From IMG/VR virus record IMGVR_UViG_2778261505_000002: 64,000 nt of DNA. One strand, 5' to 3'. The stretch comes from a virus (Duplodnaviria > Heunggongvirae > Uroviricota > Caudoviricetes). The notes below the pieces were generated by a model. That model was not told the origin of the DNA. It saw only the letters and a list, made by a program, of their open reading frames with translations, and made no database searches. This document shows, in pieces, positions 1,689-64,000 of this stretch (position 1 is the first letter of the stretch; each line of letters opens with the position of its first letter). A program made the position numbers and the translations under genes.

Positions 1689-1704
1689 AACTACAGTGTC
1701 AGCT

Positions 1705-7055: not shown

Positions 7056-7538
7056 TTGGCGGTAATTGTGAAAGCTGATTTGTCAAAAATCCCCTCTATT
7101 TCAGGAAATAATGGTTATTCACTTCGTTGTGAGGAAGTAAAGATAAACGGTGAGTCGGCATATTGCAGCTACTCCGTTTGCCAGCACACCATTCTTGCCT
7201 TCAAAGAAAACCGTCTTCCTCGAACTTCATTCCAGTCGTGCGCAACCGCTATCAAAGCAGGCAAATGCAAGGCGTTAAAAATGATGGTTGAAGAGATTCG
7301 TAAAGGAGAATCTCTGTATTTCGAAGATATGACCGCGCTCATTAAGGAGGTTGAAGAACGGAATAAACAAGCCAGAACTTTAAAACGAAAACGTGACAGT
7401 GTAACGATTAATAGCATGGTTAAGAAGAGCGCCACATCACAAACAGCGATCACTGACGTGTATGCGGCGTTGCTTGAAGAAACAACAAAAGAAACACATG
7501 AGCAAATCGATCAACATATGGAGGTAAAACAACAATGA
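7056..7538 (+). CDS. Hypothetical Cys-rich protein (start uncertain)
   Basis: Track ORF starts at TTG; several Cys residues; true start may be an internal GTG/ATG. Confidence 0.35.
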   Translation: MAVIVKADLSKIPSISGNNGYSLRCEEVKINGESAYCSYSVCQHTILAFKENRLPRTSFQSCATAIKAGKCKALKMMVEEIRKGESLYFEDMTALIKEVEERNKQARTLKRKRDSVTINSMVKKSATSQTAITDVYAALLEETTKETHEQIDQHMEVKQQ

Positions 7539-8857: not shown

Positions 8858-9033
8858 TGCTCGGCTGGATGATTGCATTTTTAGCAGTTGGTTTTTTCAT
8901 AGGTATTGTGGTGATGTCCAGTTGCATCAATGACTACATTAAAAGCGGTGTTATAGAAAGACGCGGTCGTATTTATCGCATTGTAGAAATAACCAACACC
9001 CTGAAGGAGATTAAGGATGATCGTATTAAGTAA
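8854..9033 (+). CDS. Small membrane protein (59 aa, not in ORF track)
   Basis: ATG overlaps ligase stop (ATGA); MMLGWMIAFLAVGFFIGIVVM hydrophobic helix. Confidence 0.35.
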   Translation: MMLGWMIAFLAVGFFIGIVVMSSCINDYIKSGVIERRGRIYRIVEITNTLKEIKDDRIK

Positions 9034-9232
9034 ACGGGAGAAGGAAACGCTTCATGAAATCAGTAAGTGGCCGGAGTTCCCTGAGTACTGGAAGCCTAAA
9101 ACGCGAGCTAAGTTAGAGCGTTTAGGGTTGGTTGCAAACGTTTCTGAAACGTGGTGTTCGGCCAACTACCAGTTAACTGATAAAGGGAAAGTATTGCTAC
9201 AGCAATTAGTAGAATCAGGAGCGTTAAAATGA
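9017..9232 (+). CDS. Hypothetical protein
   Basis: 71-aa ORF with AAGGAG RBS 7 nt upstream. Confidence 0.4.
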   Translation: MIVLSKREKETLHEISKWPEFPEYWKPKTRAKLERLGLVANVSETWCSANYQLTDKGKVLLQQLVESGALK

Positions 9233-9381
9233 TTCCATACATCTCATTAGCTTTTATGGGTGGCTTCCTTATCGGCTTCGGCATCTGTCGTGATTTAATT
9301 AAGCAGGAACTTAAAACCAAAACACTGTGCATCGGAAAGCGTGTGTATCGGGTAGTTCATGAAACAAAGGTGAAAATATGA
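9229..9381 (+). CDS. Small membrane protein (50 aa, not in ORF track)
   Basis: ATGA overlap with previous stop; MIPYISLAFMGGFLIGFGI helix; its first 16 nt recur at 10240 and 11892. Confidence 0.35.
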   Translation: MIPYISLAFMGGFLIGFGICRDLIKQELKTKTLCIGKRVYRVVHETKVKI

Positions 9382-9668
9382 GCAATTTAACTTCTTGGGA
9401 ATGGTGGTTGGCCACCTATTTCTTAGCGGCCGGAGTCGCATTCGCCTTTTACGTAGGTCAGTTAGTCGTAAAACTGTTGCTGATTAAATTTGCTAGTCAT
9501 AAACGTATCGATGATGGTCTGTGGCGTCTTGGCACCCTGGTGGAAACTCGCTACGGGCAACTTAAGGAGAACGAAACCATTACTATCCAAGCGAAACGAT
9601 TCACTGCCACCATTACAAGAACACCTAGTCGTAGAGTGGCCTTGATCAAAAAAGTCACAACCGAATAA
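9378..9668 (+). CDS. Hypothetical membrane protein
   Basis: 96 aa; N-terminal hydrophobic segment; start overlaps previous stop. Confidence 0.4.
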   Translation: MSNLTSWEWWLATYFLAAGVAFAFYVGQLVVKLLLIKFASHKRIDDGLWRLGTLVETRYGQLKENETITIQAKRFTATITRTPSRRVALIKKVTTE

Positions 9669-17714: not shown

Positions 17715-20700
17715 CTTCTCACTTGGGGAGTCGGCTCTAAAAGCAGAAAACGCGGTGAAGATTGCCAGAGAAGCTGGCTACACCGCTGTAATTTCAGCAG
17801 ATAGCATGAATATTGCGAGCGTTATTCCACTACAACGTGCCGCTGGTGACGACATGGCGGTTATTTGTGGTGTGAAACTAAACATTGTTGATGATCCCAC
17901 ATACGAGCACCGGGCTAAACTTGCTAAAGAATCTATGAGATGTATGGAATCATTAGAGCGAGGACGTAACTACTCGTTTACCGCTCTAATTAAAAATGAG
18001 AAAGGATATCGCGACATCTGCGAACTAATGACGGCGGCCAACACACGAGAACAGTTCTACTTTGTACCGCGTCTCTCGCTCGAACAGTTGGTTTCTACAT
18101 ATGCCAAAGGCAACATCATCCTGCTTACTTCCGACATCGGTAGCGTGTTCCAACGCAACGATTTTGCAAAAATCATAAGCACACTGATTACAGCGGGTGG
18201 AAAAGACAACTTCTATAGTGTGGTTTATCCGCACCCTACCCCATTCTACGACCAGATTAACGTCCGGGCGATGAAAGTCGCCAGCGCATTGAAAATAGAG
18301 CCAGTGGCGTTCTATCCCGCTTATTACGAATCGATCGACGATGCAGACATTAAAGACATTGCGCACATGGTTACGAACAACATCAAAATCGACCAGCCGC
18401 ATCGTCTGCGTATCCCCCACCAGCGAGATAACGCCGTCAATGGTCGCCGCCATCTCCTTGAGGCGCTTAAAGCCTTCTCCGTTCGCATGGATGTGCCGGT
18501 AACAGCTGCAATGGCCTCAACAACGCAGGATACCATTATCGATGCCTGCACATGGCGCTGGCATGAATTGCCGCCAGCACTGCCAAAGATGGCAGACGAC
18601 GAGCCTGCAACGCTGATGAAACTGGCTGTTGCAGGGCTGCGTAAACGTCTTACCACAAAAGAGTTTGGATACACACCACCTGCTTCTGAGAACAGGGTTT
18701 ATGTTGAGCGGCTAAAGTACGAAATGGACACGCTGACTCGCCTGGGATTCTGTGGTTACTTCCTGATGGTACGCGATCTGATGAATCACAGCCGTGAAAC
18801 TGGCATTCCTGTCGGGCCTGGTCGTGGTTCCTCCGCTGGATCTCTGGTGGCATGGTGCATAGGCATAACCAACGTCGACCCAATCCGTCACGGTCTTCTG
18901 TTTGAGCGTTTCATCAACCCTGAGCGTCTCGACTTGCCAGATGCGGATTTGGACTTCAGCCAGGCACGTCGCCATGAGGTGATCGAGTATCTGAATGAAC
19001 GATACGGCGAAGATTACGTTGCAGGTATTCCTAACTTCACATATCTGGGCGCAGCCTCTGCACTACGTGACACCGCTCGTATTTATGGTGTGGAGTCCGC
19101 AGATATGGCGGTATCAAAAGAGCTGAGGAACGTCGAGGATGATAGCCTTCCATTGGAAGAGCTGCGCGAACAACTGGCAAGTCTCGACAAATACGCGACA
19201 AAATACCCTGATGCATTCAATGCAGCCTGCAAGTTACAAAGCCTTATGCGTGGCTTTGGTAGACATGCGGCAGGGATGATTGTAGCAGGTGTTCCTCTGA
19301 CAGAACGTACACCGGTTGAACGACGTGGTGACGCGCGTTGTATCGCATTTGACAAGCGTTACTGCGAGGCTATGGGCCTAATTAAGCTGGACGTGCTTGG
19401 CCTGGCAACTCTCGATTTGCTCGATAGTGCAAAACGCTACATAAAAGAGAACACAGGTGAAGATATCAATCTTGATGCCATTTCTCTTGAAGATCGCAAG
19501 GTGCTGGATGGTTTTGCTGCTGGGTACACTCAAGGTGTTTTCCAGCTTGAATCAGGCCCAATGCGCAAGCTGCTTAAAGATTTAGGTGGTGGAATTGAGC
19601 CAATGAGCTTTAAAACGGTCGTTGCTACGACTGCGCTCTTCCGGCCGGGGCCAATTCAGTCAGGCATGTTGGATGATTATGTTTCTGTCGCCAAAGGCTT
19701 TATGACGCCGGAATCATTACACCCCGTTCTTGATGAACTTACCGCAGAAACAAATGGCGTGATTCTTTATCAGGAACAGACGATGAACGCGACTCGATTG
19801 CTTGCTGGCTTCACAATGGCTGAAGCTGACGGCGTTCGTAAAGCGATCGGCAAAAAAGACATGGAGAAAATGAAGAGCATGGGTGAGAAGTTCATCGTTC
19901 AGGCTCAAGCTGGCTGGATAGACGTTGAGCTGGAAGATGGCACTACACAGCGCATTCACCGTGCGGAACATTTTAAATGCGAAGACGGAACACTGAAAAC
20001 TGTCGAAGAGGCACTTGAGTACGGCGCAAAACTACCTATAAACGCAGTACGCGTTACAGCGTCACATCCAGGGCTATCAGAGATGAAAGCGAAGGAGATC
20101 TGGACCGCATTCGAAAAGAATGGTGCCTACCAGTTCAACAAATCACACTCTGTTGCTTACTCCTTAATCAGTTATCAATCTATGTGGTTGAAAACTCATT
20201 ATCCCGCAGAGTTTTTCGCTGCTGCTCTCACTATTCTTGGCGAAGATAAACACCAGGGGCTGGTTAAAGATGCGCTGACCTATGGTATTCGCGTATTGCC
20301 ACCAGACGTTAACGTGTCATCTAACCGAATCGAGATCCGCACGCTTGAAGATGGCAGCCAGGTGCTGTATGCGCCCTTCTCTGCTGTGAAAGGGTGTTCT
20401 GAGAATGGCTGCCAAGCCATCATGAGAGCGCGAGAAAAAGTTGGCGGCAAATTCGAGTCACTGGCGCAATTCGAAGAAGCTGTCGAGAAACGTGCCTGTA
20501 ATAGTCGAGTGCGCGAATCACTGCAAAAAGTAGGTGCGTTTGCATCCATCGAGCCAGGTAGTCTGCCAGCAACTGATCCAGAGCGTCTCCGCGACCAGGC
20601 TGAATTGATGGGAAACCTTGTCATAGACGCAGTTAAAGCCTCACGTCCGTTTGAGATGAACCCCAAACGTTCGGCTGAAATTAACGCACTCATGACACGG

Positions 20701-45763: not shown

Positions 45764-46183
45764 ATGTTTAGTGAAATGTTGCTTGAAGATGAACTGGATC
45801 GGAAAACAACAGAGGCTTTGATTCGTGTAGCGGACGAACATTCCCGGTCGCTTATGAGCGATCGAGAGGCTCGTCTGGCTATTCGTGCCATATTCGAAAC
45901 TGCGCAGGGGCTTGTTGGTACACAAGTGGGTGAAGCCATTAACATCGCCATGTCTCAGTTCAGTGAAGGCAGTAAAAAGCCTCTGTTTCCTATGCATTTG
46001 ATGCTGGCTGGTGGCACGGTGCTTTATATCTCTGTTTGTCTGGATAGCAACCAAATCAATATTCTCAACACTGTGTCAGGTAAGTGGAAAGATCCGATTG
46101 TCTGTGAAACCAGTGAAGAAACTTTGAAAAAAGCGGCTCAATTTGTACGTAGCGCACTACTTAAGGGCGCTAAGAAGTTGTAA
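45764..46183 (+). CDS. Hypothetical protein
   Basis: 139-aa ORF; no recognisable motif. Confidence 0.45.
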   Translation: MFSEMLLEDELDRKTTEALIRVADEHSRSLMSDREARLAIRAIFETAQGLVGTQVGEAINIAMSQFSEGSKKPLFPMHLMLAGGTVLYISVCLDSNQINILNTVSGKWKDPIVCETSEETLKKAAQFVRSALLKGAKKL

Positions 46184-46192
46184 GGAGTTCTG

Positions 46193-46750
46193 ATGACAAC
46201 GATTGTTGCAGGCATCGATATCGAGTCTACGGGACTGGATTTCCTTGCTGGTCATAAAATTATTGAAATCGCAATTACCCGCTATGAACTGGAGACACAG
46301 AGACATATTGATAGTCTGGAGATGCGTTTTAACCCTCGCAGAAACATAGATCCGAAAGCTCAAGCCGTTCATGGCATTTCATTGGAACAGCTCGCAGCTG
46401 AACCTTTGTTGTCAAATCATGCCAGCGAAATTGGCGCTTATATGGGGGCATGTAGTGTGTGGGTTGCTCATAACGGCGAAGCATTTGATATACCATTTAT
46501 TCGACACGAGTTTTCAGGGTATGGAGTAAGACTGCCAGAAGTTCCTGTTATAGATACTATGTTATCGGGATTTTGGGCCACAGAAGACGGTAAACGTCCC
46601 CGCCTTGAAGAGTTGGCCTTCTCTCTTGGCTTTATATACGATCATGCCAAAGCACATAGTGCCTTATATGACACAAACTTAATGATGCAATGCTTCTTTA
46701 AGGCACGTAATAAGTACGGATTTTTTAAATTACCCTCTGAAATTGTGTAA
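46193..46750 (+). CDS. DnaQ-like DEDDh 3'-5' exonuclease
   Basis: 185 aa; Exo I GIDIESTGL, Exo II VAHNGEAFDIPF, Exo III HSALYD. Confidence 0.75.
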   Translation: MTTIVAGIDIESTGLDFLAGHKIIEIAITRYELETQRHIDSLEMRFNPRRNIDPKAQAVHGISLEQLAAEPLLSNHASEIGAYMGACSVWVAHNGEAFDIPFIRHEFSGYGVRLPEVPVIDTMLSGFWATEDGKRPRLEELAFSLGFIYDHAKAHSALYDTNLMMQCFFKARNKYGFFKLPSEIV

Positions 46751-46754
46751 AACA

Positions 46755-46793
46755 AAAGCCTACTTTAAAAAGTTTAAAGTAGGCTTTCTTTTA
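46755..46793 (+). terminator. Rho-independent terminator
   Basis: AAAGCCTACTTTAAA ... TTTAAAGTAGGCTTT long hairpin followed by CTTTT. Confidence 0.65.
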
Positions 46794-46908
46794 AAGAACA
46801 GTCGCCTTTCAATCATTTCCTGCCTGTATTTAATACTTTTCCGCCTGATAGGTTTAGTCAAAATGCAGCCATCGAAACGCAAATGTAACCAAACAGAAGG
46901 AGACTTAC

Positions 46909-47718
46909 ATGAGTTCGGTTGAAAATGTAATGACAAATGATGATCTGGACGAGCTGACAGCCATGTTGCAATCACTTGATGAACCAGTAAAAAAAGCTGC
47001 ACAGGTTGAAAATACTGATGATATTGACGATCTGCTGCTCGGCCTAGATGCTGGCGTAGCCATGAGTTCTGATGATGTTGCCGAAGAACTGTTCAATGAA
47101 GAAAAAGCAGGTGATTTCAGCTCTGCTTTAAATGAGTTGGAGTTAGCGCATGAGCCTATAAACGTAATTAACGCTGAAAGTGTTGAAGCTGCCGAAAACG
47201 AGCCAGAACAATTGGGATTTATTGAGGTTGAAGAGTGTGTTGAGGTTAATGATGAATTAAAAGTTCAACAGTCAAATGATAGCAATACAAATAAAAAAGC
47301 TCGTACTGCAAGAGGTCCTCGTTTTACTTTAAGTGATAAAGATGATTCGTTTTTCAATAAAGCGGGCTTAGAAAAAGATATTTTCTTAGACGCTTACGAT
47401 AACGCGCCTGTCAAAGCAAAGGATAAGATATTAAACCTTCTTAATTGGTTTAGCGGAGGTCCAGATATTAGTGTTTACACGGTAATTTCCATGAGACACC
47501 TTCTCACAGAAAAGAAGGCTACAAGTAATAGTATTAAGATTGCTTTAATGAGCAATCCAGAAAAACCGTATCCGCTTAATACTGCGTCAACTCAGGCTGG
47601 GCAAATGATGGCTGTATTTCCAGCGACAGGAATTGCCGTTAGAGACGGTGGAAATCTAACATTGAACGAAGAATCACCGATCGTTAAGAAGTTTGTCGCG
47701 GAGTACACTATTGGATGA
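46909..47718 (+). CDS. Hypothetical protein with strongly acidic N-terminal half
   Basis: 269 aa; first ~110 residues are D/E-rich. Confidence 0.45.
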   Translation: MSSVENVMTNDDLDELTAMLQSLDEPVKKAAQVENTDDIDDLLLGLDAGVAMSSDDVAEELFNEEKAGDFSSALNELELAHEPINVINAESVEAAENEPEQLGFIEVEECVEVNDELKVQQSNDSNTNKKARTARGPRFTLSDKDDSFFNKAGLEKDIFLDAYDNAPVKAKDKILNLLNWFSGGPDISVYTVISMRHLLTEKKATSNSIKIALMSNPEKPYPLNTASTQAGQMMAVFPATGIAVRDGGNLTLNEESPIVKKFVAEYTIG

Positions 47719-47901
47719 CGTTCCCCTACTTAAAATAAAGCCCATAGAGAGCTTTATAGTACTGGGTAAGCCAATCACATACCCAGCACCACAAAAACGC
47801 GCTAGAGAGCTTCTCGTTTGCATTTCTGGCGCGTTTTATTTGATTGCCAGACATAAAATCAAATGCAAAAATAGGTATATACTTACCTATCGAGAAAGAA
47901 G

Positions 47902-48495
47902 ATGATTGCAGCCGAAAAAATCAAACAGCGAAAGCGCGACAACTCTCTTCGTGACCTCTGGAGAACACCTGACTGGCTGTTTTCTGCCATTCAACGTTAT
48001 CTTGGAGTGACATTTGATGTTGACGTTGCCTGCAACAAGGACAATGCAAAGCTGCCTAATTTCATAGGCGTTGAGCGTGATGCTTTGAAATCTGAATGGG
48101 GACAGCCAGGTACAATTGCCTTCCTCAATCCACCCTACTCCAAAATCTACCCCTGGATTGATGCGGCTATACGTGAGCAGGCTCGCGGAGTTACAACAGT
48201 GATGCTAATTCCTCAATCCCTAGATACAAAGTGGTATGAGCGTGCAACAGAGTGTGCGAATGAGACGATTATTCTGTCTGGTGGCCGCGTAGCGTTTGTC
48301 GAGCCTGACGTAAATCTGGGGCAGGTAGAAGTAAACATCAACCCAGGTGGCAGTATGCTCGTTGTTTTTCGAGGATTCTGTCAGGACGCTGGGCACTCTA
48401 TAAGCAAGATCCCTTTGGACGTCATGAAAAGTCTGGGAGGGTATGATCCTGCGAATGTGATCAGGAAAAAAAGACCATCAAAGAAGGCTGCTTAG
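47902..48495 (+). CDS. DNA N6-adenine methyltransferase (phage Dam-like, orphan)
   Basis: 197 aa; WRTPDWLF N-terminal motif and catalytic NPPYS; no adjacent restriction endonuclease gene. Confidence 0.75.
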   Translation: MIAAEKIKQRKRDNSLRDLWRTPDWLFSAIQRYLGVTFDVDVACNKDNAKLPNFIGVERDALKSEWGQPGTIAFLNPPYSKIYPWIDAAIREQARGVTTVMLIPQSLDTKWYERATECANETIILSGGRVAFVEPDVNLGQVEVNINPGGSMLVVFRGFCQDAGHSISKIPLDVMKSLGGYDPANVIRKKRPSKKAA

Positions 48496-48527
48496 TTTGT
48501 TCTGGCGTCTGTAATTAGCCTGCTTCT

Positions 48528-48584
48528 GTATATATAAATAACTACATATTAATTATTAATATACGGAAGAAGGCTGTTTTGTAT
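48528..48584. repeat. Long hairpin element, copy 2 (homolog of 2584..2638)
   Basis: GCCTGCTTCTGTATATAT ... ATATACGGAAGAAGGC imperfect inverted repeat around an AT-rich loop; followed by GTTTTG. Confidence 0.6.
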
Positions 48585-48656
48585 CAGAGACTCCAGACCT
48601 GAACATCACTACAGAATCCACTAGAACCCCTTCCCAGACGCTTTAAAATCGATTTT

Positions 48657-48911
48657 ATGAACCACTTTAAGGAAACCAACATGTCATACCCGACTAATGT
48701 CGTTGCGCTCGTAGAGAGCGATTTTCTGGCCCAGGCTCGTGAAATGATGAAAGATCGTGAGCAGGCTTTCAACTTGTACGAATGGGCAATTAAGTGCTTG
48801 CATCTTGGCGAGCATCGCGAACTTGTTGAACAGCTTTTAGGTGAGTTGATCAATGAGGTGTTTGCCTTGAATGTTCAACTACATGGTAGAGAAAATAATC
48901 AATCACAATGA
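48657..48911 (+). CDS. Hypothetical protein
   Basis: 84-aa ORF; no recognisable motif. Confidence 0.4.
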   Translation: MNHFKETNMSYPTNVVALVESDFLAQAREMMKDREQAFNLYEWAIKCLHLGEHRELVEQLLGELINEVFALNVQLHGRENNQSQ

Positions 48912-49494
48912 TAGATAAGTACAAACTATTCATAAAGTGAATTGTAAGTGCTAAGATCTGATAGTTTCCAGTCGTAGACTGGAGACTCGACCTGATGGGT
49001 GGGGGTAAGCGTCACTGGCGTCAGGTTTAAAAAAAGCTCACTACCAGCGTAGAACTGGTGCCGTTTAGGTGTCGGGGAAGGGGGAACCAAAGTGAGCAGA
49101 GACAAGGGTCACTTTATGATTGTCGAGTCTGGGGTGTTTCGAGAGGTTGAATCCAGTACTCCCCTTCATAAAGTGTGGGAAGATCTCGGTTCTGGGGTGC
49201 TGTCATCCATAACTTCCCAAGTCTAAGCTGGCAGTAGACTTAGACCATAACTTTTCAGGTTATGAAACGACCAGGTTGGTGAGAGATTTTTATACTCACC
49301 TCCCTGGGAGAGTATTACCTGAAAAGACAACCTCTCACTTCGTTCGAGGTGAACTTCACTCACTTCGTTCGTTCAGTTCAGGTTTATAAAAACCTGTTCT
49401 GGGAAGTAATTTGTTTATTTTAATAATTATTAACACGCACGCGTGTGCGCACGCGCGAGGAAAAATCGGCGCGGCGCTTGATTCAGGAGTTTAT

Positions 49495-50085
49495 ATGACG
49501 ACGAAGACACCAGCCCGATCGCAAGCAAAAACTCGCAAAAAAGCCAAAAACAAAAATTCCCCCCGCACCAATCCCACAACGCCTGTCGTAGAGTTCAATC
49601 CCCAGCTTAAAACCGTGAAAATCTTTAGTGATGGCTCTTGCCTTAAAAATCCGGGTGGCCCGGGCGGTTACGGTATCGTTCTCCAGTATCGTGGTGAGGA
49701 ACGCGAGTTCTCAGATGGTTTTCATAGCACCACCAATAACCGCATGGAGATGATGGGGGCACTTATCGGGCTGGAGCGTTTGAAATATCCATGCAACGTT
49801 ATTTTGCACTCTGATAGCCAGTATCTGAAAAACGGCATGACACAGTGGATGAAATGGTGGAAACGCAATGGATGGATGACTTCTGACAAAAAACCAGTAA
49901 AGAATGTTGATCTGTGGAAGCGTCTGGATGAGGCCGCAAGTCGACATAATGTTCGCTGGAAGTGGGTTAAAGGTCACGCCGGGCATCGTGAAAATGAAAT
50001 ATGTGATCGACTCGCGAAGATCGCAGCTTTTTCAGCAGCAGATATGCCTCACAAGAAAGATATTGGTTTTGTTTATAATAAATAG
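49495..50085 (+). CDS. Ribonuclease HI with basic N-terminal extension
   Basis: Start at ATG 49495 after CAGGAG (track ORF begins 49411 inside a GC-rich palindromic tract); RNase H core IFSDGSC...[28 protein letters not shown]. Confidence 0.8.
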
Positions 50086-50522
50086 TAAGTAAGTGTTTAC
50101 CTATCATTTTAAATCATGTATCTTATCGGCGTCAGGATGACAATGTGTCGGTAAGACACAGTTCCAGGATGGAACGAGAAAGGCGGCTGGCAATCGCCAG
50201 CCGCAACTCTTTCTGACACTGGATGGAGTCCACATGGCACGTCAAACCTATTTCACTTCTGTAACTAAACGTCCTCGTTCTTTACGTCAAATTTTGGCCG
50301 AATTATTTAGCGGTCGGGTTATGTCACGCCTTGATGAACTAGAGACTACCGTTCGGTTGCTGAATGAACGTTTAGATAATCAAGCGTCAGTTGTTGCGAA
50401 CGTGGGGGCGATTGTTGCCTCTGGTTCTTCACGCGAAGCGAAAAATGCACGGCCTTTAGTGAAGGAGAAAAACAACAAGGACAGTTCGAATGGAAAATTT
50501 TCAAAGAAAGAGGCTGAAACCA

Positions 50523-50741
50523 ATGGCCTACGTTCTCATTATAGTTTCACTGGCGACGGTAGCCGTTCCAGCCGGTCAGAGCCTTTTGATGCCGGATTCA
50601 TCCATCACCACACCTTCGTCGACGACAATTACCACCACTCCAGTGGAGCGTCCTGTCACTCTGGATGGGATGGCGGTGGATGCGATACCTCAAGTTCATC
50701 CAGTTACTCAGGATCATGCTGTGACTAAGGCGGTTGTATGA
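50523..50741 (+). CDS. Small secreted/membrane protein with Thr/Pro-rich tail
   Basis: 72 aa from ATG 50523 after AGAGG; signal-like MAYVLIIVSLATVAVPA; overlaps alternative-frame ORF 50234..50728. Confidence 0.4.
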   Translation: MAYVLIIVSLATVAVPAGQSLLMPDSSITTPSSTTITTTPVERPVTLDGMAVDAIPQVHPVTQDHAVTKAVV

Positions 50742-50926
50742 ACTGGTTTTCAAATCACTTTGGAAAAATTTGGCTGGCAATTCTTGCCCTTATGGCCGCC
50801 GGTTGGGTATCGAACATTATAAAACTTGTTTGCTCTGGCGATCTCCAGTTTCAGGCTGGCATGACCTTGGCTCGTGTAGTTGGGATTTTTGTTTTTCCAG
50901 TTGGTTCGGTACTTGGTTATTTCTGA
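50738..50926 (+). CDS. Small membrane protein
   Basis: 62 aa; ATGA overlap with previous stop; two hydrophobic segments. Confidence 0.4.
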   Translation: MNWFSNHFGKIWLAILALMAAGWVSNIIKLVCSGDLQFQAGMTLARVVGIFVFPVGSVLGYF

Positions 50927-51019
50927 CGGCTGTTAGTGCATATGCATTGACCATCTCTGCGTAAGCTATTTATGTAATTAGAAAACAACTTGTTTTGACA
51001 AATAATAAAAGGAAAGCAC

Positions 51020-51445
51020 ATGTTAGGTTTCTTCAAAAAGAAAACTCGTAAAGCTGTTATCGAAGTCAAAAAAATGGAGAACCGTGATGCGGTTGAGGCC
51101 ACCGTGTGGGGCGCGTACATGATCTCCTATGCTGACGGCACATGTGACGCAAAAGAAATTGCCATTCTTGAGAAGACAATTGCAGCTCTGCCTGCGTTTT
51201 CTCCGTTTGCTGGTGAAATTGCCCAAATGAGCGCCAATATCCGTGCTCGTTACGAAGCGTCCCCTCGTTCTGCTAATGCACAGGCTATTCGTGAGCTGTC
51301 TGATATTGCGGGTACTCCAGAGGCGGTCGATGTTCTGTGTCTGTGCCTTGATATTGCCGATCAGGACGGCATTGGTGAACAAGAAGAGCAGGCACTGAAA
51401 AAGATCGCCCAGGCGCTTCAGTTGTCACTGGATGCTTATCTCTAA
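51020..51445 (+). CDS. TerB-like domain protein
   Basis: 141 aa; paired acidic helices (YADGTCDAKEIAILEK ... DIADQDGIGEQEEQALKKIAQAL) resembling the TerB fold. Confidence 0.5.
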   Translation: MLGFFKKKTRKAVIEVKKMENRDAVEATVWGAYMISYADGTCDAKEIAILEKTIAALPAFSPFAGEIAQMSANIRARYEASPRSANAQAIRELSDIAGTPEAVDVLCLCLDIADQDGIGEQEEQALKKIAQALQLSLDAYL

Positions 51446-51603
51446 TGCTTGAGAGATTCCGGCTTGTGATCGTCATTGCTCTTCTGGTGATGGCGGTGTT
51501 GGTGGATTTTACGGGAAAGATGATGTCTGTCATTTCTGATGGCGTCCTCATTGGTTTGGCGATCTACTTCGCTTATCCGTTAGTTCGTAAAGCAAAGTGT
51601 TAA
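51445..51603 (+). CDS. Small membrane protein (52 aa, not in ORF track)
   Basis: ATG overlaps TerB-like stop (TAATG); two hydrophobic helices; followed by strong terminator. Confidence 0.4.
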   Translation: MLERFRLVIVIALLVMAVLVDFTGKMMSVISDGVLIGLAIYFAYPLVRKAKC

Positions 51604-51604
51604 T

Positions 51605-51637
51605 GACAAGGGCCAAATGGCCCTTGTGTTTCGTTGA
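51605..51637 (+). terminator. Rho-independent terminator
   Basis: GACAAGGGCC-AAAT-GGCCCTTGTG followed by TTTCGTT. Confidence 0.7.
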
Positions 51638-51742
51638 CCGAAATAGAGAGTTTGCACCTTTACGTTTAGCTTGCTCCCCTTTTATGCCACATCACAATAA
51701 AGCCAATAAGAAAACAACTTGTTTAAGTATTAGGAAAAACAC

Positions 51743-52309
51743 ATGTGCAAGAAATGCAGAGCGATAGCTGATGAACAAAACGCCTTATTCGAAGAAATGG
51801 ATGCTAATGAACTGGTCAAAATGTTAGCCATTCTTCGAGGAATAGAAGACGTTTCCATATTTGAGAGACTGTTTACAATACTTAATTTTAATTCCACCTT
51901 TGAAGAGCCAACTCAGATTGTAGCTTTGGCACACCATTTCGGTGTTCATTACCTTGCTGAAAAAGAGAGAGCTGATAAGTTGCAAGCGACTTTGGATATG
52001 GTGAGCGAGACTCCAGGACCTCATGACGGTAACAAAAGTGAGACGATTATTGCCAGCAAAGATCGTGAAATTGCCGGGCTTAAATCCTCTCTAACGATGT
52101 TGATGTCTGCAATTAACCTTATGTCTTCTAAAGCAGGTTCTAAAATGCCATCACTAAACAGCGACGATCCGATGGCCGTTCGCCAGCTTTTAGGTGCAAT
52201 GGCCGACCAGCTCGACGACACAAAGAGTCGCCTTGAAGACATGATGCGGGAGCTCACGCATCGCCATGACTTGAATAAGCAGCCGCACAAAACGCAATAC
52301 GCACTCTAA
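51743..52309 (+). CDS. Hypothetical coiled-coil protein
   Basis: 188-aa ORF with GGAAAAACACATG start context. Confidence 0.5.
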   Translation: MCKKCRAIADEQNALFEEMDANELVKMLAILRGIEDVSIFERLFTILNFNSTFEEPTQIVALAHHFGVHYLAEKERADKLQATLDMVSETPGPHDGNKSETIIASKDREIAGLKSSLTMLMSAINLMSSKAGSKMPSLNSDDPMAVRQLLGAMADQLDDTKSRLEDMMRELTHRHDLNKQPHKTQYAL

Positions 52310-52326
52310 TACAGCACCAGTCGACA

Positions 52327-52348
52327 GGGGGCGACAGCCCCCATTTTT
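52327..52348 (+). terminator. Rho-independent terminator
   Basis: GGGGGC-GACA-GCCCCC followed by ATTTTT. Confidence 0.65.
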
Positions 52349-52450
52349 ACGCCTTAAATCTGCTGTAACGCCTATGAATGCAGCTTTTATGCCTTTTCAA
52401 GTTTGCGATAATTACACCAATCAGAAAACAAATTATTTAATGGTGTAATT

Positions 52451-54136
52451 ATGAATACAGCCCTTTCCATCATCGACGATGCCAGCTCAAACACGGCTAT
52501 CGACTATCGTCAGGAAATGAATGTCATCCACGAAATCGTGGCCGAGTGCGAGAAAGAGATCGCCTTCATGTATCAGGTTCACGACTTCGTTTATGGAGAC
52601 GAACGCCACAACATGATTAATCGCCTGCTGAGACTAAACCATCGACCAGATGAAGATCGCTCGCGTTTAAATCGAGGTTGGTTGGATAAAGTCGATCTGG
52701 AATGGGTGAAACAGAATATTTGGGCCGAGTACTGGAGGAAGGTCACGGACATGACTAACGTTTTGCTGATCATGCCAGCTTCCCGTCGAGATGAGTGGCG
52801 CGAGCAGTTTATAGAGGGCAAACAGGAAGTCATCAAAACTGACAGAACCGGCTACCAGATGAAGGTTAAAGAGTTCGTTGGTGTACCGGAGTTCAAAGCA
52901 GAAACGGTCATACCCACGATGCTTAATTTGCTGAATGACAGGCACAAATATCTCTCTGAGCGCGTGTATGGCTTGTTTAAGGCGCTGAGTCCTGCGCACA
53001 AGACAAATAAGACAAACGGTTTCAGCGAGCGTCTGATAATCGCTGACTGCATTTCTGATTTCTGGCGGGACAGCGTTAGCGTGAACTATCGCAAAGAGGA
53101 CTACATCGACGATCTGCGTGTCTTGCTTCATTTCTTCGCGCACAAAGAATTTATTACCATCAACCGCACTGCTGAGGTGCTATCAGCTGCGTATCGAGCA
53201 AACGACTGCCAGACCGGTGACTGGATGAACGTCGATGGAAATCTGATGCGCGTGAAGATGTTCAAGAACGGCAACGTTCACTTTGAAATACATCCTGACG
53301 TGGCCTGGAAGTTGAATGAGGTGCTGGCTTACAGTATGCCTGCTGCAATCCCCGCGCCATGCCGAACTGCGCCAAAAACACGGGCACCAAAGCAGTTCGG
53401 GTTAATCCAGAAGACGATCTCCGTGCCGGTTCGCACTGCGCTTCGTGACGGGCGATTGAGCAAAGACAAAGGCGTATGGTACTTCTCTGATTCAGCTCTC
53501 CAGAAGTCGCAGGTGGAAGAGCTTGAGCGCACACTGAGCTTCATTGGCGGCGTGCAGGAGAAAAAGCACTGGCAGTTCCCGTATGACATCGGCCATACGC
53601 TAAATACGATTGTGGCTACCGGTTTAATACCGGATACAAAATCACACCAGTTCTACCCTACCCCACGCTTGATTGCTGAGTACGTTGCCAGAGCCACTGA
53701 ATTGAAGCCTGGTGAGAAGCTGCTGGAGCCTCAAGCCGGACGTGGGGATCTTCTGGCCTATATTAACGCCGATCTGGAAGATGTTACCTGCATAGAAATC
53801 GCACCTCTCTTCGCTGATATCCTGCGTGGAAAAGGGTATACGAACACGATTTGCTGCGACTTCATAAAGTGGTCTGAGGACAACGCAGGTTATCAGTTCG
53901 ACAAAATCGTTATGAACCCGCCGTACTCGCTTGGTCGTCATAGAGAGCACACGCTGGCTGCGCTGGGGCATCTGAAAGTCGGCGGGCGTCTTGTAGCAGT
54001 ATTGCCGGGCACTGCGCCAATACTGGACTGGATGACGATGGATAATTACGTTTATGCCAGAGGGAAGTCGTTTACCAACGAGTTTGAAGACACAGGGATC
54101 ACAGTCAGCGTATACGTTTTCAAACGCGTTAAATGA
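52451..54136 (+). CDS. Putative N6-adenine DNA methyltransferase with large N-terminal domain of unknown function
   Basis: 561 aa; C-terminal ~180 aa carry FYPTPR, SAM-binding-like LEPQAGRGDLL and catalytic NPPYS (gamma-class order); N-terminal ~380 aa unassigned. Confidence 0.6.
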   Translation: MNTALSIIDDASSNTAIDYRQEMNVIHEIVAECEKEIAFMYQVHDFVYGDERHNMINRLLRLNHRPDEDRSRLNRGWLDKVDLEWVKQNIWAEYWRKVTDMTNVLLIMPASRRDEWREQFIEGKQEVIKTDRTGYQMKVKEFVGVPEFKAETVIPTMLNLLNDRHKYLSERVYGLFKALSPAHKTNKTNGFSERLIIADCISDFWRDSVSVNYRKEDYIDDLRVLLHFFAHKEFITINRTAEVLSAAYRANDCQTGDWMNVDGNLMRVKMFKNGNVHFEIHPDVAWKLNEVLAYSMPAAIPAPCRTAPKTRAPKQFGLIQKTISVPVRTALRDGRLSKDKGVWYFSDSALQKSQVEELERTLSFIGGVQEKKHWQFPYDIGHTLNTIVATGLIPDTKSHQFYPTPRLIAEYVARATELKPGEKLLEPQAGRGDLLAYINADLEDVTCIEIAPLFADILRGKGYTNTICCDFIKWSEDNAGYQFDKIVMNPPYSLGRHREHTLAALGHLKVGGRLVAVLPGTAPILDWMTMDNYVYARGKSFTNEFEDTGITVSVYVFKRVK

Positions 54137-54196
54137 TAGGTAAATACTTACTTAGTTTATGTAAGAATGTAGTAACTAAACGATAAGAGAAAACAC

Positions 54197-54901
54197 ATGA
54201 GCAACCTCCAGTTAGAGCATTTTAACGTCACAGGCCATTCCGATTTTCCTTTCAAGTTTACATTGAAAGGTTATGCAGAGGATGCGGTAGGCCAGATCAT
54301 TATTGATAAAGGCATCGTTAAGTTTGAGGGGAATTTTGATGAATCCGCGAAAACATTCATAGACTTCGTTGCCAAACGTTGGAGCGAGCAATGGAAAGAC
54401 CTGGAAAAGCGCGCTAGTGAGTTTGATCGGTTCATGGATGCAATGGATACAGCAAAAGAGGCTCTTGCTGCCGGTACTCCGTTAGATCTGGAGTCACTTT
54501 TCAACGGCGAAGTGGCCTCTGCGATGTTCGCCACCATGTTCGCGGGTGAGTTCGTCCGCAGCGGTGCCAAAAACTACCTTGAGCTGGATTACAACGTCCC
54601 TGCAATTGGCGACTTCGTCGTTACCATCCAACGCAAAGAAGGTAAGACGCCAGGTGAACGCGTCGCAGAGCTTGAGGCCGTTGTGGATCAGCGTAACGGA
54701 GAGTGTGACCGTTTGATCAACGAGCTTCATGCACTTCGGGAAGAAAGAATATGTGCGGGTAGCAATACACGTAATGCAGCGGATATCTACTTCCAGTTAG
54801 TTGAGGAATGCCAGATTCCACCAGGTGGCTCTCTTGTCGATTACGTCAGACATTTAATGGCGGAAGTTAACTCCAGCCATAAAGATGGTGAGGTGCGCTG
54901 A
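54197..54901 (+). CDS. Hypothetical protein
   Basis: 234-aa ORF with GAGAAAACACATG start context. Confidence 0.45.
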   Translation: MSNLQLEHFNVTGHSDFPFKFTLKGYAEDAVGQIIIDKGIVKFEGNFDESAKTFIDFVAKRWSEQWKDLEKRASEFDRFMDAMDTAKEALAAGTPLDLESLFNGEVASAMFATMFAGEFVRSGAKNYLELDYNVPAIGDFVVTIQRKEGKTPGERVAELEAVVDQRNGECDRLINELHALREERICAGSNTRNAADIYFQLVEECQIPPGGSLVDYVRHLMAEVNSSHKDGEVR

Positions 54902-55281
54902 TGTTTGGCATTGACGCACAGCGTATAGCCGCTTTTGCAAAAAGCCCTCTTGATAATCCCTTGTCTCGTAGTGAGCAAATGGAGCTGGCAAGGCTTTTTC
55001 TTCACATTCAAAAACAGGCAGACATTTTCAATAACATGCCTAATCAACCTATTCTGGATGGTCACATCCAGATGGTCATTAACAGTCATGAGAAAGGCTG
55101 GGCTGCAATCGTCCCCTGCACAATTACATACAAGTTGGCGAAAGAGGTTCAAGAGTTTCGAAAAGCCAGTGTCGAATCGGAGTCTACCAAAGCCGCAATA
55201 AACACTCTTATTCGCATGGGGTTCACATGGACCGGTGGAGCCTACTGGCAAGCACCTCACCCCATTTTATCCGGCAATTAG
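54901..55281 (+). CDS. Hypothetical protein
   Basis: 126-aa ORF, start overlaps previous stop. Confidence 0.4.
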   Translation: MFGIDAQRIAAFAKSPLDNPLSRSEQMELARLFLHIQKQADIFNNMPNQPILDGHIQMVINSHEKGWAAIVPCTITYKLAKEVQEFRKASVESESTKAAINTLIRMGFTWTGGAYWQAPHPILSGN

Positions 55282-55400
55282 ACGCTACAAATCCTTCGGC
55301 ATGAATAAATAAAGGCCATAAGTTGTGGCCTTAAATAAATTGTTTTCTACCTTTTCTTATTTGTGAAAATAACCACAACTAGAAAACAACGGAGTTAAGA

Positions 55401-56042
55401 ATGTCTAGTATTTCCGAAGCTCATATGTTCGCCGCTGGCGCTCATGGTGGCGTTGGTCAGAAAAGAAAATATACCGGCGAAGACTACATCAACCACCCGG
55501 TTGCTGTCCGAGAGATTGTTGCATTGCATGACGGAACCGTGGAGATGCAAATCGCGGCGCTTCTGCATGATGTGGTCGAAGACACCCATGTAACCATAGA
55601 GATGGTTCGTGATCACTTCGGTGAGCGCGTAGCTGAAATGGTTCAGGCTCTGACCAACATTGCAAGGCCAGAAGACGGCAATCGAATACAGCGTTTCATC
55701 ATCAATGTCCGGGAGCTGGAGCAAAATCTCGACATGCAGACGCGCATGATCAAGCTGGCTGACCTGCTCGACAATACCTCTTCTATCGTGAGTCGCGATC
55801 CCGAGTTTTCAGCTATCTACCTTGCAGAGAAAGAGCTGATGCTGGACGTACTTTTTAACGGGAAGGAGATTGGTGCCAACGCTGATGTTGTCGAGTACAT
55901 GGAGAGGATAGGTATAGAACACCCGTTGCTATTAAGCGCAATGGCGAAAGTCACTGAAGGTATTGCGCTTCTGAAACCGGAACACATCAAACGTTATGAA
56001 AAACACAAATCGCTGATCTGGAGCGCGTGGGAGGCTGCATGA
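55401..56042 (+). CDS. HD-domain (p)ppGpp hydrolase-like protein (small alarmone hydrolase candidate)
   Basis: 213 aa; HPVAVREIV...AALLHDVVEDT matches the RelA/SpoT hydrolase HD motif; no synthetase domain. Confidence 0.65.
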   Translation: MSSISEAHMFAAGAHGGVGQKRKYTGEDYINHPVAVREIVALHDGTVEMQIAALLHDVVEDTHVTIEMVRDHFGERVAEMVQALTNIARPEDGNRIQRFIINVRELEQNLDMQTRMIKLADLLDNTSSIVSRDPEFSAIYLAEKELMLDVLFNGKEIGANADVVEYMERIGIEHPLLLSAMAKVTEGIALLKPEHIKRYEKHKSLIWSAWEAA

Positions 56043-56581
56043 AGGTAGAAAAAATAGATGTTCTTTCCTTTGTGCTGACGGATCTGGAACGTCTCGATCC
56101 GGTTCGAGTGATGATTGAAAACTACGAACCTGGTAAGGGAAGAATCACCATCACCTGCTACGGAAAAGCGTGGACTGCGGCTTGGTTTGCTATGGGCGGT
56201 GATGATGTGCAGACGTTCATCAAGCGAGTTAGCAACGACTATCTAATCGACAATTTCGACCCTCAACTGCTAAGCACGGTCGACGATGACAACGATGCAA
56301 ATCTGCTTTTCGTGAAGTCAGAAATCATAAAGTTACGAAGAGAGAGAGAAATCGACGCCGTACTAGCTCGCGAAATGTGGGACGAGGCGGAAAACGCCGA
56401 TGACGTAAAAGAAAGCTGCTGCTGTTTCGGCGTCGGTAACAAACTACTGAATCTCTTTGGTGATGATCCGTGGTATGCCGACTGGCCAACGGTACCAAAC
56501 CCGAAATACCAGTATCTGGAACGCATTGTGAACGCGGTACGTGAAGGGCTGAAAGAGTTAGACAAGTTAGAGGCATCGTAA
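56039..56581 (+). CDS. Hypothetical protein
   Basis: Track ORF 56027 (GTG); ATG 56039 overlaps previous stop; Cys triplet CCCFG. Confidence 0.4.
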   Translation: MKVEKIDVLSFVLTDLERLDPVRVMIENYEPGKGRITITCYGKAWTAAWFAMGGDDVQTFIKRVSNDYLIDNFDPQLLSTVDDDNDANLLFVKSEIIKLRREREIDAVLAREMWDEAENADDVKESCCCFGVGNKLLNLFGDDPWYADWPTVPNPKYQYLERIVNAVREGLKELDKLEAS

Positions 56582-57087
56582 TGAGAGAGAAAATCAAGAA
56601 CCCGGTCGTCGTATTGTATAAACGGGAAACCAGCGATTCTTATGCGGTATCCATCACTGATGGAAGCCAGAACATGCACGATGGTCTGCTAATGGCCGCC
56701 GTATCTCCTGATGATTCGGACTACCCTTTCGCCACTTTCGCTATGGTTGGTTACTACATGGCTGCCGAAATTGAGAAGTTGCGGGCGCAGAGAGACGCAT
56801 TAGCGGCGGAGAATGTGGCATTGCGATCTAAGGCTGCGGAACTGGCACATGAAGCGTCAAAAATTTACTCGGCATATAACGCCACTATCACAGAGCCTGA
56901 CGGGGATTTTATGGACATGCAGACATTGCATGAAATGCAGTGCATAGAAACTCCAGCCACCGACGCTTTTCTGGCTGAAGTACGTGCGCAGGGCGTGGAG
57001 ATGTTTGCGGAGTGTGCATACACACTTGAACATCATGATCACGCAGTAGCTTTTGCCGCCGAGCTACGTGAAGGAGGCAACCAGTGA
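56581..57087 (+). CDS. Hypothetical protein
   Basis: 168-aa ORF; coiled-coil segment. Confidence 0.4.
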   Translation: MREKIKNPVVVLYKRETSDSYAVSITDGSQNMHDGLLMAAVSPDDSDYPFATFAMVGYYMAAEIEKLRAQRDALAAENVALRSKAAELAHEASKIYSAYNATITEPDGDFMDMQTLHEMQCIETPATDAFLAEVRAQGVEMFAECAYTLEHHDHAVAFAAELREGGNQ

Positions 57088-61257: not shown

Positions 61258-61647
61258 ATGGGCTTCCCTTCTCCTGCGGCGGATTATGCTGAGAGCCGTA
61301 TTTCTCTTGATCAGCAGATAATTAGACATCCTTCAGCGACCTACTTCATGAGGGCAGCTGATAGTCATCATCGTGAGGGAATATTACAGGGTGCATTGCT
61401 GGTGGTCGATTCCTCACTTACCCCGGTTGATGGTTCTCTGCTTGTATGCGCTCTGGATGGGGAATATCGCGTAAAAAGATACCGGAAGTACCCACGTCAG
61501 CATCTGGAGGATTTAAGAACCGGTAAGAAGGAAGCATTGCCAAAGGATGACGATGGATGCACGGGCAGCAATGCCGTGTTTGGTGTGATCACTCACATTA
61601 TCAACGACGCAAGAAGTGGCGAGTTTGATGATTGTCCCGTGATGTAG
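61258..61647 (+). CDS. UmuD'-like protein (S24 peptidase family, natively lacking the UmuD N-terminal pro-segment)
   Basis: 129 aa; begins MGFPSPAADYAE, aligning with UmuD from the post-cleavage Gly onward; GAGG RBS; no umuC-like gene downstream. Confidence 0.7.
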   Translation: MGFPSPAADYAESRISLDQQIIRHPSATYFMRAADSHHREGILQGALLVVDSSLTPVDGSLLVCALDGEYRVKRYRKYPRQHLEDLRTGKKEALPKDDDGCTGSNAVFGVITHIINDARSGEFDDCPVM

Positions 61648-61684: not shown

Positions 61685-62785
61685 TCACACTGCGCGGAAT
61701 GCGATTTCGCCAGGTATTACTTCACCTTGCCAATACATTTGGGCAGCAACGCGATCTGCGAGGTCACGATAAATAGCTGTAAATTCGCTATCTGGACGAC
61801 TAATAACGGTTGGTGTTCCGTTATCCAGATCTTCACGAAGAGAGATATGAAGTGGCATTTGGCCTAACAACTGCGTGTTGTATTTCTCGGCCAGTTTCTG
61901 TGCGCCACCGGTGCCAAAAATTGGCTCGTGATGACCGCAGTTACTGCAAATATGCACACTCATGTTTTCAACGATACCCAGTACCGGCACTTCGACTTTT
62001 TCGAACATCACAATGCCTTTCTTCGCATCGATCAGCGCGATGTCTTGCGGCGTAGTTACCACAACCGCACCAGTTACAGGAATGTTCTGCGCCAGCGTCA
62101 ACTGAATATCACCAGTGCCCGGCGGCATATCGAGAACAAGATAGTCCAGATCAGGCCACAATGTTTCCTGCAACATCTGCATCAGCGCCTTGCTGGCCAT
62201 CGGTCCACGCCACACCATTGCATTGTCGTCGGTGACCAGATAACCAATAGAGTTGGTTGCCAGGCCATGAGACATGATAGGTGCCATGTGAGTACCGTCA
62301 GGTGAGGTTGGACGTTGGTTTTCCGCGCCCAGCATGGTTGGAATTGATGGACCATAGATATCGGCATCCAAAATACCAACTTTCGCACCTTCAGCAGCCA
62401 ACGCCAGTGCCAGGTTTACCGCCGTGGAGGATTTACCCACGCCGCCCTTGCCTGAGCTGACGGCGATAATGTTCTTAACGCCATTAATGCCTGGTTGGTT
62501 TTTGACGCGCTTAAGCGTGGCAATGTTGTACGACAGCTTCCAGTCAATAGCCTTTGCGCCAGTGATACGGAGCAGATCACCACTACATTGCTCTTTCAGG
62601 TCTTCAAAAGGCTTATTCCACACGAAAGGCATGATTAGTTCGACATGCAGTGTGTCATCCATCAACGCAACATGGTGTAACGCTTTAAGCGTAGTCAGGT
62701 TGTGTTTCAGGGTTGGGTGCTGAAAATTAGCCAGCGTACCGGCTACCATTGCTCTCAGGGCATCCGGCGATTTGGACTCGCTCAT
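61685..62785 (-). CDS. apbC: Fe-S cluster carrier ATPase ApbC/Mrp
   Basis: 366 aa; near-identical to enterobacterial Mrp/ApbC as I recall it (P-loop SGKGGVGKSS, CxxC); divergent from metG as in enterobacterial chromosomes. Confidence 0.9.
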   Translation of the reverse strand: MSESKSPDALRAMVAGTLANFQHPTLKHNLTTLKALHHVALMDDTLHVELIMPFVWNKPFEDLKEQCSGDLLRITGAKAIDWKLSYNIATLKRVKNQPGINGVKNIIAVSSGKGGVGKSSTAVNLALALAAEGAKVGILDADIYGPSIPTMLGAENQRPTSPDGTHMAPIMSHGLATNSIGYLVTDDNAMVWRGPMASKALMQMLQETLWPDLDYLVLDMPPGTGDIQLTLAQNIPVTGAVVVTTPQDIALIDAKKGIVMFEKVEVPVLGIVENMSVHICSNCGHHEPIFGTGGAQKLAEKYNTQLLGQMPLHISLREDLDNGTPTVISRPDSEFTAIYRDLADRVAAQMYWQGEVIPGEIAFRAV

Positions 62786-62942
62786 CCCGTCTCCTTTATT
62801 TTAATTTGCGCAATTGTCGCCTTGTAGTGTACTCCAGCTACGACATTTAATCATTTATGAGAAATGCTGTTATCACATGGCAGACATAAGGCCATTTTGT
62901 TACTATCAAGCCCCTTTTCACTACAAAGAAGTAATGCCTACT

Positions 62943-64000
62943 ATGACCCAAGTCGCGAAGAAAATTCTGGTGACGTGCGCGCTGCCGTACGCTAACGGCT
63001 CAATCCACCTCGGCCATATGCTGGAGCACATCCAGGCTGATGTCTGGGTTCGTTACCAGCGAATGCGCGGCCACGAGGTTAATTTCATCTGTGCCGACGA
63101 TGCCCACGGTACGCCAATCATGCTGAAAGCACAGCAGCTTGGTATCACACCGGAACAGATGATTGGCGAAATGAGTCAGGAACATCAGACTGATTTCGCA
63201 GGCTTTAACATCAGCTATGACAACTATCACTCGACGCACAGCGAAGAGAACCGTCAGTTGTCCGAGCTTATCTATACTCGCCTGAAAGAGAACGGTTTTA
63301 TTAAAAACCGCACCATCTCTCAGCTGTACGACCCGGAAAAAGGCATGTTCCTGCCGGACCGTTTTGTAAAAGGTACATGCCCGAAATGTAAAGCGCCGGA
63401 TCAATACGGCGATAACTGTGAAGTCTGCGGCGCGACATACAGCCCGACGGAACTGATCGAGCCGAAATCAGTGGTTTCTGGCGCTACACCGGTAATGCGT
63501 GATTCCGAACACTTCTTCTTTGATCTGCCTTCTTTCAGCGAAATGTTGCAGGCATGGACCCGCAGCGGTGCGTTGCAGGAGCAGGTGGCAAACAAAATGC
63601 AGGAGTGGTTTGAATCTGGCCTGCAACAGTGGGATATCTCCCGTGACGCACCTTACTTCGGTTTTGAAATCCCGAACGCACCGGGCAAATACTTCTACGT
63701 CTGGCTGGACGCGCCGATTGGCTACATGGGTTCTTTCAAGAATCTGTGCGACAAACGCGGCGACACTACCAGCTTCGACGAATACTGGAAGAAAGACTCC
63801 ACCGCCGAGCTGTACCACTTCATCGGCAAAGATATCGTTTACTTCCACAGCCTGTTCTGGCCTGCCATGCTGGAAGGCAGCAACTTCCGCAAGCCGACCA
63901 ACCTGTTTGTTCACGGCTATGTGACGGTGAACGGCGCGAAGATGTCCAAGTCTCGCGGCACCTTTATTAAAGCCAGCACCTGGCTGAATCATTTTGACGC
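62943..64000 (+). CDS. metG: Methionyl-tRNA synthetase, 5' partial (runs off window end)
   Basis: Translation from ATG 62943 gives [29 protein letters not shown] with HLGH motif and zinc knuckle CPKC...CEVCG; open to window end; absent from the ORF track because it has no stop. Confidence 0.9.

Follow-up and report, generated by a model that had tools for sequence, protein, structure and literature searches.

A PaSpo-type small alarmone hydrolase gene as probable counter-toxSAS cargo of an SSU5-type phage-plasmid of E. coli

The gene at 55401..56042 of the window (the whole stretch of DNA that was analysed, 64,000 nt) very probably encodes a stand-alone small alarmone hydrolase (SAH), the E. 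coli phage-plasmid orthologue of PaSpo, carried as optional cargo with a proposed role against toxSAS. The hydrolase as such was already known: a 2020 publication described and tested the orthologue group and put forward the same function. The enzyme of Salmonella phage SSU5 is a standard reagent for taming toxSAS, and the window gene has little discovery value; its interest is ecological, as an optional and often inactivated gene in a widespread enterobacterial phage-plasmid family.

The gene and the family of its product

Features of the region around the gene were as follows:
47902-48495, + strand: Dam-type N6-adenine methyltransferase
52451-54136, + strand: DNA methyltransferase, 561 aa, DUF4942 plus C-terminal methyltransferase-like region (PHROG 6263 'DNA methyltransferase')
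54197-54901, + strand: upstream gene, 234 aa
immediately 5' of the hydrolase gene: upstream neighbour, 126 aa
55312..55332, no strand assigned: 7-bp hairpin AAGGCCA-7 nt loop-TGGCCTT, terminator-like, in the 119-nt spacer upstream of the hydrolase gene
55391..55394, + strand: Shine-Dalgarno GGAG, 6 nt before the ATG, read from the sequence
55401..56042, + strand: predicted SAH gene, ATG start, 213 aa, PaSpo-type, single RSH HD domain
56039..56581, + strand: downstream gene, 180 aa, PF26211 (precomputed label of the protein database), phiTE gene 072 family

The motifs INHPVAVREIV and AALLHDVVEDT correspond to residues 30-40 and 52-62 of the product, which is labelled 'HD domain-containing protein' in RefSeq at the same coordinates of near-identical plasmids. 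The hairpin at 55312-55332 was flagged on the minus strand by a terminator scan and lies within a stretch common to phage Cyrano, which is without the hydrolase gene. No sigma-70-like promoter on the + strand was found by promoter scan between this hairpin and the hydrolase gene or elsewhere upstream, and counts of sigma-70-like sites over the hydrolase region were below shuffled expectation. A repeated regulatory element upstream of the gene was considered and rejected; the leader matches two other intergenic sites of SSU5, but is single in the window.

The earlier note had read the motifs as the catalytic signature of the RelA/SpoT family, and the profile search proposed there was run and bore this out. 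Pfam HD_4 matched residues 8-135 with E=1.3e-18 and 67.6 bits (cut-off 27.2 bits), far above the generic Pfam HD profile, which scored 27 bits; the N-terminus of NCBIfam spoT_relA (positions 1-123 of 687) matched with E=1.4e-24 and PHROG 990 'metal-dependent phosphohydrolase' with E=1.3e-53. All PDB sequence matches were Rel/SpoT hydrolase domains, MESH1 or bacterial SAHs, with residues 35-214 of A. baumannii SpoT at the top (E=8e-14). Membership of another phosphohydrolase subfamily, the case named in advance as refuting the assignment, was examined: the motif falls within the RSH subfamily, and no similarity to non-RSH HD subfamilies was seen in Pfam, PDB sequence or Foldseek searches. Tested as a long RSH, the protein failed, only the first ~125-150 of ~700 profile positions being matched and the whole-protein scores being 86 and 60 bits against curated cut-offs of 499 and 947 bits. 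The absence of a synthetase domain was likewise borne out: HD_4 and HD were the only Pfam matches of the 213-aa protein, with no synthetase (RelA_SpoT), TGS or ACT domain. Profiles, fold matches and model support assignment of the window protein as a single-domain RelA/SpoT-homologue (RSH) hydrolase, i.e. a SAH.

Catalytic residues of the hydrolase were predicted from alignment conservation as R22, H32, H56, D57, E60, D61, R98, K118, D121, N125 and E143. In a family alignment of 42 sequences with 43-82% identity to the window protein, R22, Y24, T25, Y29, H32, P33, H56, E60, D61, T62, R98, K118, D121, N125 and E143 were invariant and D57 was kept in at least 90% of the sequences; the motif residues align to the matching motifs of MESH1, SpoT and Rel. 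The roles of the metal ligands (His, His-Asp, Asp), the Glu-Asp pair and the substrate-binding Arg/Asn are presumably those assigned from the RelSeq and MESH1 structures. The AlphaFold2 model (pLDDT 97.3, pTM 0.92) is a single compact helical domain, and its 50 best Foldseek matches in the PDB were all RSH hydrolases at probability 1.00, with MESH1, Drosophila Mesh1, T. thermophilus Rel, a P. aeruginosa SAH, C. glutamicum RelH, SpoT and a (p)ppApp hydrolase among them. Two features set the phage-plasmid clade apart from relatives of ~175 aa: an insertion at roughly 158-175 and an additional helix at the C-terminus (193-212). The gene is under purifying selection, with omega (dN/dS) 0.05-0.18 over the whole gene; the C-terminal region is faster evolving (0.12-0.28) than residues 1-149 (0.03-0.10).

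The SSU5 orthologue and the proposed role

Comparison with gp099 of Salmonella phage SSU5 (AFL47026.1) gave 87% identity over 213/213 residues without a gap. All family-invariant residues were identical; none of the 27 substitutions fell at a family-invariant or near-invariant site, and 18 of them lay in the C-terminal 64 residues. Both genes stand in the same place after the DUF4942 methyltransferase and ea-type genes, are followed by the same PF26211 gene and belong to the same element type, a phage-plasmid of ~105-115 kb; the elements differ in host (Salmonella versus E. coli) and in the immediate upstream genes, which have diverged (63-77% aa). The family profile, run on all six-frame ORFs, picked out a single RSH-HD ORF in each of SSU5 and the window, tblastn gave a single matching place in the SSU5 record, and gp099 is the only SSU5 gene annotated as guanosine-polyphosphate hydrolase. 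Because gp099 is the only RSH-type ORF in SSU5, we infer that it is the published PaSpo SAH tested by Jimmy et al., an identity drawn from the sequence and not read from a stated accession. Orthology and shared gene order with the SSU5 PaSpo would place the window protein in the PaSpo subfamily by proxy.

The earlier note had suggested that the protein could counter alarmone-synthetase toxins, and this has been shown experimentally for the 87%-identical orthologue: the 'Salmonella phage SSU5 SAH (PaSpo)', classed as a stand-alone phage-encoded SAH, neutralised all five toxSAS tested by Jimmy et al. (2020, PNAS), namely CapRel, PhRel2, FaRel2, PhRel and FaRel (PMC7229694, Table 1). The same authors proposed that hydrolase-encoding phages could bypass alarmone- or toxSAS-mediated abortive infection (PMC7229694). 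FaRel2 was neutralised by mere leaky expression of PaSpo-SSU5, which according to the authors removed the tRNA modification (PMC11559606), and PaSpo-SSU5 tamed CapRel-SJ46 so as to allow its purification (PMC9712102). In vitro, MESH1 and ATfaRel restored the aminoacylation of tRNA pyrophosphorylated by FaRel2. The literature found on PaSpo-SSU5 covers in vivo neutralisation only, and no purified-enzyme kinetics on ppGpp, ppApp or tRNA-PP were found in it.

In the proposed mechanism, modelled on family chemistry, a metal centre (Mn2+ in characterised RSH hydrolases) would be held by H32, H56, D57 and D121, E60/D61 and R22/N125 would position water and substrate, and the 3'-pyrophosphate would be removed. 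Because co-expression of the orthologue neutralises every toxSAS tested, nucleotide and tRNA pyrophosphorylation would both be reversed, or their effects otherwise cancelled, a step drawn for the PaSpo lineage from in vivo rescue only. Replication and virion production of the phage-plasmid would be shielded from CapRel-type toxSAS abortive-infection and toxin-antitoxin systems, and lowering of host (p)ppGpp would be a likely side effect or second use. Counter-defence against CapRel-type systems is a plausible natural role: tRNA-pyrophosphorylating CapRel systems, triggered by capsid protein, occur in prophages of E. coli, Enterobacter and Klebsiella, and these three host both CapRel prophages and hydrolase-bearing phage-plasmids. 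We found no published study of a phage or phage-plasmid with versus without the hydrolase gene against toxSAS defence.

It is possible, if somewhat doubtful, that the order of importance is the reverse, i.e. that the enzyme mainly breaks down host (p)ppGpp, keeping the stringent response off the replication, transcription and translation that the phage-plasmid needs, with toxSAS neutralisation as a by-product. The domain is homologous to the (p)ppGpp hydrolase of SpoT/Rel, (p)ppGpp and (p)ppApp are both substrates in vitro for related SAHs, MESH1 for one (PMC7644958), and the large replication and nucleotide module of the element (dnaE, helicase, ligase, ribonucleotide reductase) would gain from a non-stringent host; however, the gene is missing or decayed in most SSU5-type E. 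coli plasmids, which argues against a core life-cycle function, and the literature yielded no (p)ppGpp measurement in lysogens or infected cells and nothing on ppGpp in SSU5-type phage-plasmids. Lowering of host (p)ppGpp and counter-defence are compatible and do not exclude each other.

The counter-defence role could also be extended, though we consider the extension rather unlikely, to a hydrolase expressed in lysogeny that continuously erases tRNA and nucleotide pyrophosphorylation and so disarms the CapRel-type defences of co-resident prophages, protecting the element's own induction and admitting unrelated phages whose infections such defences would otherwise abort. If this were true, patchy presence and decayed alleles would reflect counter-defence against the cost of a blunted stringent response and immunity.

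The phage-plasmid, distribution of the gene and its neighbours

Long stretches of the window were 98-100% identical to E. coli plasmids of ~105-115 kb (e.g. pAVS0968-B and pECAZ162_2), the gene order was that of Salmonella phage SSU5, and the window and related plasmids carried tail genes, dnaE, a DnaB-like helicase, ligase, ribonucleotide reductase, RNase H and a tRNA cluster. On plasmid identity, gene order and gene content, the window is therefore identified by sequence as an SSU5-type phage-plasmid of E. coli, which narrows down the 'phage-like element' of the earlier note. The hydrolase gene is one of a long run of accessory genes, closely packed on one strand, that are of lambdoid 'ea' type (Ead/Ea22, DUF7739, DUF551, ClpX zinc-finger protein). 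The two DNA methyltransferases flanking this accessory region are probably anti-restriction functions.

Three further observations concern the element. The four-tRNA cluster at 10447-10997 (+ strand) comprises Asn(GTT), Tyr(GTA), Thr(TGT) and Ser(TGA), where SSU5 is annotated with tRNA-Asn only. The reported targets of FaRel2 are tRNA-Gly and tRNA-Thr, and defences aimed at tRNA can be bypassed by phage tRNAs (PMC11559606); for this reason, an element-borne tRNA-Thr beside a hydrolase predicted to repair tRNA may merit a look. The normally chromosomal genes apbC (iron-sulfur carrier; 61685-62785, - strand) and metG (methionyl-tRNA synthetase; ~62940-64000, + strand) were present, adjoined by a HumD-like peptidase gene (61258-61647); an additional aminoacyl-tRNA synthetase on a phage-plasmid is unusual, and the same apbC/metG segment was found on plasmids pAVS0968-B and pAMPD1 (L011 11587-14878; L003 3180-6043). 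Positions 518-20482 of the window were inverted relative to pAVS0968-B, the right part (45770-56783) matched directly and the middle (20.5-45.7 kb) gave no match within the 65 kb of pAVS0968-B that were compared. As the window order agrees with that of SSU5, pAVS0968-B, which bears ISEc23 and ISEc52 insertions, appears to be the rearranged one.

The hydrolase gene was found in 44 of 5,426 complete E. coli genomes, on a plasmid every time, and at least 80% of it was matched in 36 of these 44. With the neighbouring DUF4942 methyltransferase as marker of the plasmid family (247 plasmid matches in E. coli), an intact hydrolase was present in ~36 of roughly 247 E. coli plasmids of SSU5 type. Close homologues were seen on contigs of ~105-117 kb from Klebsiella, Raoultella, Enterobacter, Salmonella and E. 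coli, and more distant ones in 249 phage records, many of them jumbo phages. Decayed or chimeric alleles were recognised among the database proteins P0009, P0010, P0011, P0012 and P0035. In one allele D57G (HD to HG) occurs together with H15Y; in a chimeric one, named 'AAA family ATPase', residues 1 to ~58 are swapped for a P-loop N-terminus, and in another chimera the N-terminus comes from the upstream 234-aa gene (deletion fusion); both N-terminal replacements take away the metal ligands. Further alleles are truncated at residue 139 (139-aa product, on 139 contigs) or frameshifted near residue 108, and an IS1-associated rearrangement cuts at least one remnant after 43 nt (L003 3001-3043), with the same 43-nt match on a second plasmid. 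From patchy presence and decayed alleles it follows that the gene is optional cargo and frequently lost; the window copy is intact. Related plasmids can do without the gene and have often lost or inactivated it, so any benefit of the hydrolase is conditional. Intact, HD-to-HG, N-terminally replaced, truncated and deleted alleles in near-identical plasmids form a ready experimental series.

The earlier note had described genes of 200 aa on either side as possible functional partners. Genes do flank the hydrolase on both sides, but their sizes are 126 aa (with the 234-aa gene further upstream) and 180 aa (downstream), and the partnership was not supported. The 234-aa and 126-aa upstream genes are 98-99% identical in phage Cyrano and plasmid pAMPD1, both without a functional hydrolase, and are considered independent of it because they are so closely kept where it is absent. 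Pfam profile search gave neither RelA_SpoT nor any other match for the 126-aa and 180-aa products, and no PADLOC or other defence or anti-defence profile matched the neighbours of the hydrolase.

A two-gene functional module of the hydrolase and the translationally coupled PF26211 gene is improbable. Homology between Cyrano and the window ends at 55375 and resumes near 56581, and that between SSU5 and the window is confined here to 55302-56563 (86.6%), with diverged flanks; because these limits enclose both genes, comparison of the sequences indicates that the two have been acquired or lost together, as a single block of 1.2 kb, in the SSU5 / E. coli / pJN2-26 lineage, absent whole from Cyrano and conserved whole in SSU5. 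Together with the adjacency of the pair in E. coli, Salmonella and Klebsiella pJN2-26 elements and the ATGA overlap of the hydrolase stop with the start of the 180-aa gene, this favours a module. However, start overlaps are the norm along the whole gene string, a fold search with the 180-aa protein gave no informative match, and PF26211 proteins are common where there is no HD gene: in EC.W1-9 (90% identity, beside an eae gene), Kp4856-1, phiTE and Pseudomonas phage 8P, more broadly in phages of 40-48 kb and in phiTE/CR3-type and Pseudomonas phages, and on many chromosome-sized contigs, presumably as prophage copies. Hydrolase clades at 40-55% identity have wholly different downstream genes; in the Klebsiella phage-plasmid clade (~53% identity) the gene lies upstream of the DUF4942 methyltransferase, in the 40%-identical clade it is followed by an unrelated gene of 156 aa, and in a 48-kb phage the hydrolase gene is beside lysis genes. 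A conserved module of the hydrolase with its neighbours was rejected, the upstream genes being independent, the PF26211 link belonging to one lineage only and the neighbours of other clades differing.

Domain composition of the neighbours was also compared. PHROG 3451 (287 positions) matched the N-terminus of the 234-aa protein with positions 11-101 and the whole 180-aa protein with positions 101-282, and some relatives of the 180-aa PF26211 protein carry a DUF551 or DUF7739 domain fused at the N-terminus; by sequence, proteins of the ea region appear to be modular, assembled from shuffled domains. A Tad2-like (anti-Thoeris) gene was located ~2.1 kb upstream of a 40%-identical hydrolase on a 110.6-kb metagenomic phage-plasmid contig (L018 563-877), and a search of the corresponding part of the window gave none. 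Its position is a hint that anti-defence genes accumulate in the accessory region; an anti-defence island in the window was considered and set aside as weakly supported, with the Tad2-like gene in one relative only and just two DNA methyltransferases nearby.

Comparison with characterised hydrolases

The best structural matches were the metazoan SAHs MESH1 and Drosophila Mesh1 (Foldseek E ~1e-6, 25-28% identity, TM ~0.75 on target length). MESH1 has the same metal-binding and catalytic motifs as the window protein, and it too neutralises toxSAS (PMC7229694) and de-pyrophosphorylates tRNA. It differs in being eukaryotic and ~180 aa long, and only the window protein has the insertion at roughly 158-175 and the C-terminal helix 193-212; in addition, MESH1 has been reported to act as an NADPH phosphatase. 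With this report, and with MESH1 bound to NADPH and PAPS (5vxa, 9chy) among the top structural matches, one might read the window protein as an HD phosphohydrolase for another substrate (an NADPH phosphatase like human MESH1, or a nucleotidase), alarmone and tRNA hydrolysis being irrelevant in vivo; we hold this to be very improbable, given that the orthologue rescues from five toxSAS with distinct mechanisms, for which it must act on their products, and that the searches found no likeness to non-RSH HD subfamilies.

SAHs of the PbcSpo type (ATfaRel of C. marina and the SAH of Salmonella phage PVP-SE1) are likewise single-domain RSH hydrolases and form an SAH subfamily separate from PaSpo. ATfaRel and the PVP-SE1 enzyme neutralise all toxSAS tested, and mutation of the active-site Asp of ATfaRel (D54A) abolished antitoxin function (PMC7229694). 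ATfaRel, a type IV antitoxin, adjoins its toxin gene, whereas the window gene has no adjacent synthetase. Although SAH antitoxins exist (e.g. C. marina ATfaRel, PbcSpo subfamily; PMC7229694), a toxSAS module of the element itself, like ATfaRel-FaRel, with the hydrolase as type IV antitoxin, is highly implausible, because neither neighbour carries a RelA/SpoT synthetase domain; the conserved arrangement of two or three genes that includes a toxic SAS was not found, the RefSeq annotation of ~65 kb of near-identical plasmid holds no RelA/SpoT-domain protein, and the SSU5 enzyme was described as stand-alone.

The preferred reading, a stand-alone SAH, also sets the window protein apart from the long RSH enzymes SpoT and Rel, which have a homologous HD domain but are ~700 aa long against 213 aa; the synthetase, TGS and ACT domains and the regulatory switching between synthesis and hydrolysis are absent from the window protein. 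SAHs directed at (p)ppApp (P. aeruginosa, 6yvc and 6z3o; Bacteroides caccae, 7smg) share the fold and are stand-alone, with 20-27% identity; they differ in being chromosomal and tied to immunity against toxins that synthesise (p)ppApp.
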